Virus record (IMG/VR): IMGVR_UViG_638341086_000010
Length of the DNA stretch: 39,725 nucleotides
Strand: one strand, 5' to 3'
From: a virus
Taxonomy: Duplodnaviria; Heunggongvirae; Uroviricota; Caudoviricetes
The translations under genes and the position numbers were made by a program. Below are positions 1 to 8,797 of this stretch, in pieces (position 1 is the stretch's first letter; each line of letters starts with the position of its first letter). Under the pieces are notes generated by a model that saw only the letters and a list, made by a program, of their open reading frames with translations, was not told the DNA's origin and made no database searches.

Positions 1-229
1 TATAATAAACTTACTTTTTTATCATTTTTCCACTTTAACAACATTTTGCTCCACTTTTCCACGACCAAACAACTTGAAATCTGGTTAAAATAACACGCAA
101 CACTATTCTTCTTCCTTGAGTCCGCCCGGAACTCGAAAAACAAACCGAGTTAAGGCCATTTTTCACAAAATCGATTTTGGATCTCACCAAAATTACGGGG
201 TTGCATACGCATTCGTTTATTTTCGAACG

Positions 230-249
230 TGTACATACAAATATGTACA
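230..249. promoter_or_regulatory. Perfect palindrome TGTACATA-N4-TATGTACA about 70 bp upstream of the serine recombinase start; a further TATGTACA half-site at about 286-293. Candidate recombinase binding/crossover or operator site
   Basis: Read directly from sequence: 8-bp perfect inverted repeat with 4-bp spacer, plus a third half-site copy. Function is inferred only from position. Confidence 0.3.
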
Positions 250-318
250 AAAATAATCAAAATTATTTTCTGAGATGCATTATGATATGTACACCAATTT
301 CGTATCGAAGATCTCACT

Positions 319-909
319 ATGTCTCGAATTTATGCTTACTGTCGGGTATCAACTCTGGAACAAACAACCAAAAATCAACGTCGGGAAATCGAAAGTGCAG
401 GTTTTAACATCAAATCTCAGCAAATAATTGAAGAACAAATTAGCGGCTCAGCAGCAACCAGTGAGCGTCCTAGTTTTAACCAGTTGCTTGATCGACTGAA
501 AAGAGGTGATGCATTGATTGTCACAAAACTGGATCGCCTCGGTTGTAATCCAATGGATATCAGTAAAACGGTGGAACAACTGACCAAAGCAGGTATCAAA
601 GTGCATTGCTTAGCATTGGGGGGCGTTGACCTGACCAGTCCACCTGGAAAAATGATGATGCACGTAATTTCAGCAGTCGCTGAATTTGAGCGAGACCTTT
701 TACTTGAGCGTACTCATTCAGGGATATTAAGAGCACGGGGCGCAGGAAAGCGATTTGGTCGCCCACCTGTGTTAAATGATGAACAAATACAGAGGGTACT
801 AGAGCAAATTAAGTCAGGTATAAATATAAGTGACATTGCCCAAGAATTCAAAACCTCGCGGCAAACCATTTTAAGAGCTAAAGCAAAAAATCAGACACCT
901 GATATATAA
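319..909 (+). CDS. Small serine recombinase (resolvase/invertase family), 196 aa
   Basis: N-terminal YCRVSTLEQ motif with catalytic-serine context, 196 aa length and C-terminal HTH-like tail typical of resolvase/Pin-Hin-Gin family enzymes; ATG directly preceded by AT-rich leader. Invertase versus resolvase cannot be decided by eye. Confidence 0.8.
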
Positions 910-1006
910 AAATAATCTCGGTGTGAGATTCCTTACGTTTTCCAAGCCCCCCTTCCTAGCCTTAAATGGAAAGATACTTCTAATTATAGAATTTATATAT
1001 CTTACC

Positions 1007-1582
1007 CTACGGTAGGGCTGGCCATTCAATATCCGGTGCAGTTGATGTATCAACACGATTCAGCAACACCCGATACTTTTTCCAGGCTTCCAGCAACAAG
1101 GTTTCTTTCTCCGTTGCGATCTCCAGATCCACAGCATCCTGAAGCGGCGCTATATGCTCACTGGCTACCTGCATCAGGCTGTTTTTTGTTTCTTCCGCCT
1201 CCCGGATCCGGAACAGTTTTTCTGCTTCCGTATCCTTCACCCAGGCTGTGCCGTTCCACTTCTGAAACTCCCCTTCCGGGGATAACCAGGTGACATTTTC
1301 CGGTAATGAGCCGAGTTCAGAAATAAATAACGCGTCGCCGGAAGCCACGTCATAAACCGTTTTACCCCGATGATCTTCAACGAGATGCCACGATGACTCA
1401 TCACTGTTGAAAACAGCCACGAAACCAGCCGGAATATCTGGCGGTGCAATATCGGTACTGTTTGCTGGCAGACCTGTATGAGGCGGAATATATGCATCAC
1501 CTTCACCAATAAATTCATTAGTTCCGGACAGCAGATTATAAATTTTTATGGTCCGTGGTTGTTCACTCATTCTGAATGCCAT
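1007..1582 (-). CDS. tfa: Tail fiber assembly protein Tfa (lambda Tfa-like), 191 aa
   Basis: Translation [18 protein letters not shown]... matches lambda Tfa as recalled; start ATG overlaps stf stop by 1 nt (TAATG). Confidence 0.9.
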
Positions 1583-4500
1583 TATGCAAGCCTCACAATA
1601 TAGTTAAATGCGATGTTTTTGACGGTGTTTTCCGCGTTACCAGCAGCGTTAACGGTGATGGTGTGTCCATGTGAGCCAATCGCAACCGAGTGCGTATGAG
1701 CACCAATACCGACAGTATGTGCGTGAGCACCTGCAGATGCAGCTGTGCCGCTGACACTATGAGTGTGCGCTCCTGCAGCACTTGTATTCACACTGGCCGC
1801 AGACACTACCTTATGTACTGACCCATTTTGTGACCACTGGCTGACTGCTGATGCGCCTGTGACACTATGAGTATGGTTTCCGGCACTTGCGGCTGTACCG
1901 CTCACACTGTGCGTATGCGCCCCGATGTTATTCGTGGATTTAGTGCCGTAATCAAACGACGATGTGGTTTTCGTCCCCAAATCCGTACTGGATGCGCTGG
2001 CGCTGTGGGTGTGCGATTTAATGCCGTCCTGTTCCTGAGACAATACAGCCCGACCACTGGCAGGTTTGCCCTTAATCGTCCAGCCACGCATATCAGGGAT
2101 CACGCCTGACGGATAAGCGGCTGCAAGTTTCGGGTATGCAGATTTGTCAAAAGTCTGCCCCTGCATCAGGGCATAACCAGACGGAACGGTATCTGATGGC
2201 CACGGGATTGGTGCACCGACTGGATAAAACTCTGCAGGAGGATGAGCCGAGGTGTAAAGCTGCGCCCACGGCGACCAGTTTGCGTCGGTCGTATCCCGTC
2301 GTGAACGAATAAATGCCGGAGCATGAGCACCGCTTGTACCACTCCAGCCGATGAGTAACTCACCTTCGCCAACGGCTGTCATCCCTTTCAGGTGAATGAT
2401 ATTTCCATACGTTGTTGGATATCCGTTGTTATACACCTCGTATAACTCAAGACCTGCTGCCCCCTGCGTATTGTCTGTCAGCGCGGCTACCCGACCTTTT
2501 GAAGCCAGATTAACTGATGATACTGCTGTTCCACCTGACGGTAGCGCCCCGATCTCTGATGCCGTTGGCTTATTTCTGGAGTTATAGTCCCTTCGCCAGC
2601 CAGGTGAATAATCTGTTCCGTGATTAATATAGGTAAACTGGGCGTTGGTTGTTCCGCCACCGCTGGATGTGGTCGGAGTGGTAATGCGGATCGTCATCGC
2701 TGACTTTATCCCCATTACTTCAATGACAGCTCCGGCGAGATGAATATTACCGCAGCCAGTATCAGTAATGATTTTATTATTGCCATAAGACCAGGAACCC
2801 TTGCACATCCAGTATGGATGGTTAAATGCTCCCTGAGAATCCAGCCACTCGATAAACTGTGCAGTCGTCCAGTTTCCTGTTGTTGTGCTTACTGACCCAC
2901 CGAAGGCACGGCAGGCACCAATATTTTTCGTAAAGGTGTCTTTGCCAGGGATATCCGCACCGTTCTGATCTTTCTGCAGACGTTTCTCAGCATTGTCATT
3001 GGCTGCTTTTACTGCCTTTGGCGTTGCCGCCAGCGTTTCAGACGTGCTGTTGGTCGCGCTGCTTAGCTGGATTATCCCTTTCTGTGCTGTCGTTGCATCC
3101 TGTGCGGTGTATTTCCCGTTAGCCAGGTCATACGCGGCCTTAACGGCTTTTGGTGTTGCCGCCAGTGACTCGGAAGTGCTGTTAGTCGCACTACTGAGCT
3201 GTACTATCCCCTTTTTCGTCGTGCTCGCATCCTCAAGCGCCACGGCGGATGCAATATCCTCTGCCCGTTTTGCCGCTGTCTCAGCGCGCGTTGCTGCAGA
3301 TTCCGCCGTACTTTTGCTCTGAGCTGCTGCCTTCGCACTACCAGCAGCCTCTGTCGCCTTCGTGGATGCCGTCGTGGCGCTGCCCTTCGCTGCTGACGCC
3401 TGTCTGGTCGCCTCATCTTTTGAAGCAGACGCCGATGATGCCGATGACGCCGCCGAACTGGCGGACGATGCCGCTGCCGTTTTTGAGGATTCTGCACGGG
3501 TTTCCGACGCTTTCGCGTTCGTTTCGGATGTCTTCGCTGCGGAAGCTGACCTCGCTGCTGCCGTGGCCTGCTCAGTGGCTTCGCCAGCCTTTGTTGTGGC
3601 TGTTGAAGCGGATGATGCGGCGCTTTCTGCCGATTTTCCGGCGGCGGTGGCACTGGCTGAGGCCTGCCCGGCACTTGTTGACGCGGCACTGGCAGACGAC
3701 GCAGCCGCTGTTTTTGAGCCTGCCGCAGCTGAGGCGCTCTGTCCCGCTGCCGTCTCAGAAGACCTGGCGTTCGTCTCGGACGTTTTTGCCGCCTTCGCGG
3801 AATTTCCTGCCGCCGTTGCCGAGGAAGCTGCGCTACTGGCGCTCAAGGATGCGTTCGTTTCTGATGATTTCGCTGCCTCTTTTGAGGCCGCCGCATCCCG
3901 GGCTGAGGTGGCAGCTTCTGACGCTTTCGTGGTCGCGGTGGATGCAGAAGTGGCGGCTGATTGTTCTGACGCTGCGGCATTCGTTTCTGACGTTTTCGCC
4001 GCACCGGCACTGGTAGCTGCCACGCTTTTTGAGGACTCTGCAGCGGCAGCACTTTTTGAGGCTTCAGTGGCCTTTGTTGATGCCGTTCCTGCGCTGGAAG
4101 ACGCTGACTGAGCCGACGAAGCGGCCTGTCCGGCTGACGTGCTGGCTGCACGTGCTGAATCTGCAGCATCAGTCGCATGGGTTGCCGCCTCACGGGCAGA
4201 TGTGCTGGCATCGCCGGCTGACTTCTTCGCGGCTGCCGTGTTCTGTGCCACTACGGACGCGTTACGCGCCACCTCTTCCACCATCAGTTCAAAACGGCGC
4301 AGTGCCTCCGGACGGGCATCATCCTCCGTCATGGCACCGAGAAAATCATTCAGCGTACCGGGTTGAGAATCTTCATACACGGTGATGGTCCCGGCATGTG
4401 ACGGCGGGAATCCTTCCACCAACAGAATAACGCTGTACTGACCGTACTCAACGTCCATGCTGTAACGCCCGGCTTCATCCGGATTTTCTGAGGCCAGCGT

Positions 4501-4608
4501 GTTCACCACCACCGTGGTGCTGTTACGTTTTGCTTTCAGCTGGATTGTGCAGTTCTCTACCGGTTTTCCTGTGCCGTCTTTCAGTACACCTGAAATCTTT
4601 ACTGCCAT
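1582..4608 (-). CDS. stf: Side tail fiber protein Stf (lambda Stf-like), about 1008 aa
   Basis: N-terminus [26 protein letters not shown]... matches lambda Stf as recalled; long Ala/Ser/Thr-rich repeat region, Gly-rich region and His-rich C-terminal repeats ([15 protein letters not shown]). ATG at 4608 chosen over the upstream GTG at 4614 used by the ORF track. Confidence 0.9.
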
Positions 4609-4620
4609 ATTCACCCCACA

Positions 4621-4645
4621 AAAAAGCCCGCCTGAACCGGCGGGC
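4621..4645 (-). terminator. Rho-independent terminator downstream of lom (minus strand)
   Basis: On the minus strand GCCCGCC-GGTTCA-GGCGGGC followed by TTTTTT, sited between the lom stop and the stf start. Confidence 0.6.
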
Positions 4646-4672
4646 TGTCATAACACTGTGTTACCTGGCTAA

Positions 4673-5272
4673 TCAGAACTTATAACCGACACCCACGATG
4701 AAACCGTCAGTGCGCCAGTCGCCACTGCCGGAGCCTTCATAAGCAATATCAATGGCCACGGATTCGGTCGGGTTAAACTGCACGCCAGCCCCCCACGCCA
4801 GAGACGTGTTGCTGTGGCGACCGTCATCACTTCCGGTCAGCACGTCGTGCGTTTTCCCCTTGTTGTCAGTTACGCGGAGATAATCCCCGGAGAAAGTCGA
4901 CACACGGCTGTAAGCCATACCCGCCATCGCATACGCGCTGAACCATTCATTCACGCGCACAGACGGCCCCGCCATTACGCTGAACCAGCGGTTACGAACG
5001 GAATCTTCATGCCAGCGGGTATCGCTGTAACGGGTCAGCTGGCGATTCTTGTCTCCTGCATAGCTGAATGACGTCACCATACCCAGTGTGTCCGTAAACT
5101 CATAACGGTATTTCACGTTAATCCCGTTCAGATCATCGCTGCCGGGAACGTTCGTCGAGGCATGAAGATACCCCGCGCTCAGCGTGGCCTGCTGCTCAGA
5201 CGCCCATGCAGGCGCACCGGATACGGCCAGACAGATGGCTGCGGACAAAATGGCGGCATAAAGTTTACGCAT
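4673..5272 (-). CDS. lom: Outer membrane protein Lom (Ail/Lom family beta-barrel), 199 aa with signal peptide
   Basis: Translation MRKLYAAILSAAICLAVSGAPAWA... matches lambda Lom as recalled and ends in the aromatic residue (GYKF) typical of OMP beta-barrels; bracketed by terminators on both sides. Confidence 0.92.
   Translation of the reverse strand: MRKLYAAILSAAICLAVSGAPAWASEQQATLSAGYLHASTNVPGSDDLNGINVKYRYEFTDTLGMVTSFSYAGDKNRQLTRYSDTRWHEDSVRNRWFSVMAGPSVRVNEWFSAYAMAGMAYSRVSTFSGDYLRVTDNKGKTHDVLTGSDDGRHSNTSLAWGAGVQFNPTESVAIDIAYEGSGSGDWRTDGFIVGVGYKF

Positions 5273-5338: not shown

Positions 5339-8797
<3,459 letters not shown>

Follow-up and report, generated by a model that had tools for sequence, protein, structure and literature searches.

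The repeats of a lambda-type side tail fiber gene: a long in-phase heptad tract, probably a coiled-coil shaft, and two diverged Phage_fiber_2 units

Are the repeats in the side tail fiber gene (stf) of a tailed phage unstable stretches of DNA, or are they ordered parts of the fiber? This question is raised by the IMG/VR virus record IMGVR_UViG_638341086_000010 (Caudoviricetes), a stretch of 39,725 nucleotides that is hereafter called the window, in which stf occupies 1582..4614 on the minus strand. An earlier note, made from the letters of the window alone, described a tandem duplication of approximately 120 bp in stf next to several hundred codons of low-complexity Ala/Ser/Thr-rich repeat, and regarded both as hotspots of slippage and recombination. 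In this study, the periodicity, DNA repeats and domain matches of stf were analysed, and the gene was compared with its relatives. The repeats are real, yet they are ordinary components, known from earlier work, of a lambda-type side tail fiber. The region very probably encodes the shaft of a fiber of the lambda/Rac type together with the junction between shaft and tip, in which a trimeric coiled coil is followed by Phage_fiber_2 units. Residue numbers of Stf are counted throughout from the GTG at 4614.

The Ala/Ser/Thr tract consists of 50 uninterrupted heptads (aa 115-464; 3223..4272, minus strand), as delimited by the heptad run and by residue periodicity. The register starts at approximately aa 108, and the full tract thereby covers aa ~108-464 (window ~3223-4293). 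Alanine, serine and threonine make up 72% of the residues over aa 117-460 (128 Ala, 79 Ser and 41 Thr of 344). Residue autocorrelation was 0.38-0.43 at each multiple of seven up to lag 56, compared with 0.215 in shuffled sequences (z = 7.7-10.2), and was at or below the shuffle level at the lags that are not multiples of seven (z <= 1.6). Among the 46 full heptads of aa 136-457, position a was Ala in every one, position d was Ser in 37 and position e was Ala in 34, giving the consensus A-x-[T/S]-S-A-x-x with no phase break across the 50 heptads. The label 'low complexity' therefore suits the composition of these several hundred codons and not their arrangement: the tract is a strictly periodic heptad array of approximately 350 codons. 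Such a label can hide a strictly periodic structural domain.

Published work on homologous fibers indicates what this array is likely to form. The gpStf of Ur-lambda was described as a trimer with a collar domain at its N-terminus (residues 1-91), then a linker and a proximal coiled coil (102-393), and beyond these a hinge (394-422) and a distal part akin to T4 gp37, using cryo-electron microscopy, tomography and AlphaFold3, and its proximal region appeared in tomograms as a rigid rod (Yu et al. 2025, PMC12617516). For Ur-lambda it is known that the Stf trimer on the tail, which is assembled with the help of Tfa, speeds adsorption (PMC12617516). In prophage fibers of enterohaemorrhagic Escherichia coli (EHEC) that share the same N-terminal domain, the adjoining Ala/Ser-rich region was named PCoil (Ghosh et al. 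2012, PMC3368898). PCoil is alpha-helical and trimeric according to circular dichroism, ultracentrifugation, light scattering and rotary-shadowing electron microscopy, and differences in its length come in multiples of seven (PMC3368898). The tract of the window shows the traits of this type, namely a seven-residue period, small core residues (Ala and Ser) and a position directly after the N-terminal domain, and it aligns in register with the proximal coiled coil of lambda Stf. By analogy with these homologs, the tract would be the coiled-coil shaft of the fiber. An AlphaFold2 model of aa 95-560, computed as a single chain without an alignment, was helical at aa 100-391 and 401-476 with a mean pLDDT of 63.7 and a pTM of 0.24; the model suggests helical propensity and nothing further. 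The rise along a coiled-coil helix is ~0.148 nm per residue. The 50-heptad shaft would accordingly measure ~52 nm, which is ~15 nm longer than the ~36 nm estimated for the 35 heptads of Ur-lambda.

The shaft is followed by two adjoining 44-residue units that match the family Phage_fiber_2 (PF03406): unit 1 at aa 465-508 (3091..3222, minus strand) and unit 2 at aa 509-552 (2959..3090, minus strand). A self-comparison for internal repeats, which had been proposed as a check of the duplication, gave two in-register copies at 2995-3101 and 3127-3233 with a spacing of 132 nt and 74% identity. PF03406 matched Stf in two stretches far beyond chance (E = 5.9e-37; 125.4 bits versus a gathering cut-off of 22), and the best stretch, aa 464-504, covered profile positions 1-41 of 42. 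The tandem duplication was thus correctly recognised from the letters, its unit measuring 132 bp (44 aa) instead of ~120 bp, and the motif SSATNSTSE[S/T] quoted from it is indeed encoded in both units; the conserved core opens with KGI[V/I]. Units 1 and 2 are identical at 28 of 44 amino acids and at 78 of 132 nucleotides. Because different codons are used for 16 of the 28 shared residues, and because the longest exact in-register DNA match between the units is 11 nt, the two copies are an old and diverged pair kept similar at the protein level, not a fresh product of slippage. Fiber protein S of phage Mu (5yvq, 8ju3) aligns across unit 2. Fiber families diverge at or near the unit in the Stf alignment, lambda inside it and the relatives L003 and L004 ~20 residues past it.

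The number of units and the length of the shaft were compared among six phage records, the 80 closest viral contigs, informative loci of GTDB genomes and three E. coli chromosomes. Repeats were counted on viral and genome contigs; a protein search with the N-terminal domain returned almost only partial fragments of 113-237 aa. Units were counted using hmmsearch with the HMMER composition filters off, as single-unit proteins were missed with the filters on. The GTDB scan contributed few independent lineages, and ~25 of its 38 matches look like lambda contamination. Across 68 complete relatives, the fiber carried no Phage_fiber_2 unit in one case, one unit in 39, two in 22 and three in six, and adjacent units were exactly 44 aa apart in all 34 pairs. 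This number varied even among fibers with the same downstream module. The sequence of PhiR29_1 matches the window at 97.8% identity and is short of exactly one 132-nt unit; the one unit that it has resembles copy 1 on the 5' side and copy 2 on the 3' side, and the switch point is the only 11-nt block that is identical in both units, CTGGCGGCAAC. This pattern fits unequal recombination between the units. A dog isolate carries 50 heptads and three units.

The heptad number was 50 in 77 of the 86 relatives, K-12 StfR included. Lambda and two contigs have 35 heptads, and the alignment opens a gap of exactly 15 heptads (105 aa) that stays in phase. In the IMG/VR sequence L040, 16 heptads are missing between two SETN heptads, and its protein is truncated afterwards; L029 has 33 heptads, and its distal part is of another kind. 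A 4-residue SAST tandem insertion in L024 (IMG/VR), which is a classical coiled-coil stutter, was the one exception to multiples of seven. Three relatives' sequences end at contig edges. Rare variants also occur at L106, L109 and L111 (Escherichia ruysiae and Escherichia sp.): the more distant Escherichia ruysiae fibers have ~35 and ~22 heptads, and the ~35-heptad tract is a different one, composed of a nine-heptad super-repeat and leading to another distal module. As read from these alignments, shaft length varies rarely and nearly always by whole heptads. The expectation that copy number varies between related prophages consequently held well for the 44-aa unit (0-3 in 68 relatives) and weakly for the shaft. 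The comparison with lambda stf, suggested together with the self-comparison, placed the two tracts in register, lambda having one unit and 15 heptads fewer.

If the repeats were hotspots at the DNA level, the unit pair would be a recent 132-nt slippage duplication and the tract a minisatellite-like array. Several of the differences just described agree with this explanation, including unit numbers from 1 to 3 among close relatives, the SAST insertion of L024, the 16-heptad deletion of L040 between SETN heptads and the 15-heptad difference of lambda. The DNA itself speaks otherwise. Besides the divergence of the two units in nucleotides and codons, Tandem Repeats Finder reported only three micro-arrays of 25-30 nt in the 1071 nt of tract DNA, no 14-mer was repeated in the tract DNA, and no multi-heptad super-repeat in the tract of the window rose above the heptad-shuffle null. 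The longest exact direct repeat in the tract was 11 nt, which lies within the range of 10-17 nt (mode 11) obtained from within-column codon shuffles. The constancy of exactly 50 heptads in most relatives also counts against a hotspot. A minisatellite-like DNA tandem repeat, which would be recognised by long exact head-to-tail identity, was rejected at this maximum of 11 nt. The suggestion that the tract is a slippage hotspot was not supported and is largely refuted, and we consider the hotspot explanation of the repeats as a whole unlikely. The composition of the tract would also suit an intrinsically disordered low-complexity spacer that acts as a flexible linker or a modification site: Ser and Thr are poor helix formers, almost three quarters of the residues are Ala, Ser or Thr, and the AlphaFold2 confidence is only moderate. 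However, a disordered spacer offers no reason why a seven-residue register should persist through 350 residues, with Ala throughout one column, or why length should change by whole heptads. Homologous regions, moreover, are alpha-helical trimers by circular dichroism and light scattering (PMC3368898), and the corresponding region of Ur-lambda is seen as a rigid proximal rod in tomograms (PMC12617516), so that a disordered spacer is very improbable.

The remaining alternative concerns the long open reading frames (ORFs) that accompany the tract, one of which, for example 3362..4111 on the plus strand, might be a real overlapping gene. ORFs of 255, 249, 118 and 109 aa lie antisense to stf within 2990-4400, and ORFs of 161 and 122 aa are found there in the other minus-strand frames. 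The two longest overlap each other (3249..4016, 255 aa; 3362..4111, 249 aa; both plus strand), and their length speaks for a gene, as does the lambda record, in which orf206b is annotated at this place. In the five non-coding frames of the tract, stop codons numbered 3, 2, 1, 12 and 27, where 8-10 were expected from base composition; the opposite-strand frames held 27, 2 and 1 against 8.4 expected. Of the 357 tract codons, 231 have C at the second position, and the depletion of stop codons is predicted by composition alone. The depletion affects three of the five alternative frames simultaneously, RefSeq calls no overlapping gene at the identical locus, and the translations are simple mirror images of Ala/Ser codons. 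An overlapping gene is hence improbable in the extreme; the long alternative-frame ORFs are a compositional effect, and the two antisense ORFs are its by-products. The remark that the repeat yields long spurious ORFs on both strands was accurate, with ORFs of up to 255 aa. In the lambda GenBank record J02459, orf206b lies antisense to the coiled-coil tract of stf (20147-20767, minus strand; 804-1424 in locus L005), and its annotation is probably a historical artefact that stems from the stop-codon depletion also seen in the window. The antisense ORFs described here, lambda orf206b among them, should not be called genes.

Several points weigh against a trimeric coiled-coil shaft with a Phage_fiber_2 junction. 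The trimeric coiled-coil state of this shaft is drawn from published work on homologs, and the lambda shaft model is itself an AlphaFold3 model fitted into tomograms, not an atomic map (PMC12617516). A core of Ala and Ser is unusual among coiled coils, and the AlphaFold2 support comes from one chain at low confidence, as the pTM indicates. The sampled relatives are the closest viral contigs and not independent lineages. PhiR29_1 may have lost a unit, or a unit may have entered the lineage of the window when its fiber gene recombined with another one.

With the region read as shaft and junction, the fiber would assemble as a trimer in which a 50-heptad shaft, with Ala at a, Ser at d and Ala at e, leads to two 44-residue Phage_fiber_2 units at the shaft end, beside the hinge. 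The units would serve as a conserved junction, and the receptor-binding modules attached behind it would differ between fibers; in the window they are a domain like that of Mu S' and a His-x-His tip like that of T4 gp37. Among close relatives, unit number would shift in exact 132-nt steps, likely through unequal recombination between units, and shaft length would shift rarely and mostly by whole heptads, because the register of the coiled coil must be kept. To our knowledge, no atomic structure of such an Ala/Ser heptad shaft exists. A shaft of 50 heptads with invariant Ala at a and neither stutter nor stammer over 350 residues may belong to a separate class of trimeric coiled coils, an 'Ala/Ser-zipper' of unusual narrowness, and the polymorphism of one, two or three units beside the hinge may be a selected tuning of fiber reach or knee geometry instead of neutral mosaic debris. 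Taken together, these two proposals are speculative and rather doubtful. If unit number does tune reach or knee geometry, adsorption rate or host range would be tuned as well. For phage engineering, shaft length in whole heptads and the number of 44-residue junction units are natural and tolerated variables for chimeric fibers. The repeats of stf themselves hold no new biology, as they were already known.

The identity of the gene as a lambda-type stf was confirmed by its domain matches (PF08400, two of PF03406, PF07484 and PF03335), the His-x-His tip, the alignment with lambda and the gene order J-lom-stf-tfa. This order, established from the ORFs and the Ail_Lom and Caudo_TAP profile matches, is that of lambda, and RefSeq annotates gpJ, Ail/Lom, a fiber gene and an assembly protein at the identical locus of E. 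coli F8704-2. Upstream of stf are the genes for a Lom/Ail outer-membrane protein (4673..5272, minus strand) and a J-type tail tip protein (5339..8791, minus strand). The gene tfa, which encodes the tail fiber assembly chaperone (1007..1582, minus strand; PF02413 Caudo_TAP, E = 3.6e-44), starts in overlap with the stop codon of stf. The stf ORF encodes 1010 aa (MNMAVK...) when read from the GTG at 4614. Its true start is likely the ATG at 4608 (MAVK..., 1008 aa), two codons downstream; an ATG start is used for lambda orf-401 and in the RefSeq annotation of stf relatives. Read from this ATG, Stf is identical to WP_024184406.1, which is encoded in the complete genome of E. coli O39:NM F8704-2. 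An assembly artefact was accordingly rejected, since the same protein, residue for residue, is found in a complete genome, and the confirmation by long reads that had been advised proved needless.

An intact serine invertase gene of the Pin/Hin type lies on the plus strand at 319..909, 98 bp past tfa, a position like that of pinR in K-12 Rac. A search of window 1-5000 gave no inverted repeat of at least 18 nt, so no invertible fiber segment is apparent there. In F8704-2, which has the identical Stf, the invertase gene is interrupted by an IS3 element.

Outside the repeats, Stf begins with an N-terminal domain that matches the full profile of Pfam phage_tail_N (PF08400; aa 3-136; 4207..4608, minus strand; E = 1.8e-71). 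Its aa 3-96 match the tail fiber protein of PDB 9e7m (E = 1.1e-51), its first ~94 residues are the counterpart of the tail-attaching collar domain described for Ur-lambda gpStfN (PMC12617516), and its last ~30 residues are already in the heptad register. The central distal domain (aa 541-722; 2449..2994, minus strand) matches PDB 8ju3, 'Tail fiber protein S, S'' (E = 1.5e-85), with chain residues 178-359 paired, and is close kin of the variable part of phage Mu S', the G(-) fiber. A collar domain and a His-x-His repeat tip follow (aa 796-1010; 1585..2229, minus strand; PDB 2xgf, E = 4.2e-87), with Pfam Collar (PF07484) at aa 800-847 and a GAHTHS Phage_fiber repeat (PF03335) near the C-terminus. 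The tip is homologous to the end of the long tail fiber of T4 (gp37) and, as seen in the alignment with lambda, to the C-terminal part of lambda Stf. Judging from these matches, the distal half of the fiber (window 1585-2994, aa 541-1010) has the mosaic build that is familiar from tail fibers. Close relatives bear other central domains or tip inserts in the Stf alignment.

Across 5,426 complete E. coli genomes, the tract-bearing region (window 2800-4400) has ~15,670 matching places in all, with a median of two per genome and at most 15. In the protein database there are hundreds of Stf sequences labelled partial, 113-237 aa long, whose ends fall in or close to the heptad tract; some belong to clusters of more than 1000 members. 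Short-read assemblies evidently break at the tract, and the many truncated Stf fragments in databases probably arise because the tract recurs within a genome. An Stf N-terminus at ~92% identity was also found in ~25 assemblies of unrelated bacteria, including Pseudomonas, Shewanella, Oceanobacillus, Kitasatospora, Bradyrhizobium and others (GTDB loci L089-L105, L108, L110, L113, L117, L119, L121 and L123). The contigs that carry these matches are either ~48.5 kb long or short and of low coverage, and the translation of L089 is that of lambda PaPa orf-401, frameshift included. Phage lambda DNA appears to have contaminated these assemblies.

Among the known systems, StfR of the Rac prophage in E. 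coli K-12 (WP_000279097.1) shares with the window the neighbourhood lom-stfR-tfaR-pinR, the N-terminal domain, the 50-heptad tract and a Phage_fiber_2 unit in the same place; it differs by one unit versus two, by another central domain and by its length of 1120 aa, compared with 1008 aa here. The Stf of Ur-lambda (774 aa) is ~92% identical over the N-terminal 120 residues, has its coiled-coil tract in register, a Phage_fiber_2 unit at the shaft end and a homologous collar and His-x-His tip, whereas it has 35 heptads instead of 50, one unit instead of two and another segment between unit and tip. The EHEC collagen-like fibers EPclA and EPclB (PMC3368898) resemble the fiber of the window in their PCoil, and EPclB also has the Pf2 (PF03406) repeat. 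Their PCoil measures 88-116 aa with a periodicity called loose (PMC3368898), in contrast to 350 aa in near-perfect register here, and no collagen domain follows the tract of the window. In Mu S, a single Phage_fiber_2 unit precedes the junction motif DNA..RL.KD.NGADIP, which is the same as here, and the variable part of Mu S' is close to aa 541-722 here; Mu, however, is a contractile-tail phage, and its S has another N-terminus and no long Ala/Ser heptad shaft. Everything in the repeat region of this gene falls within known families, namely Stf/StfR, PF03406 and PCoil or the proximal coiled coil.

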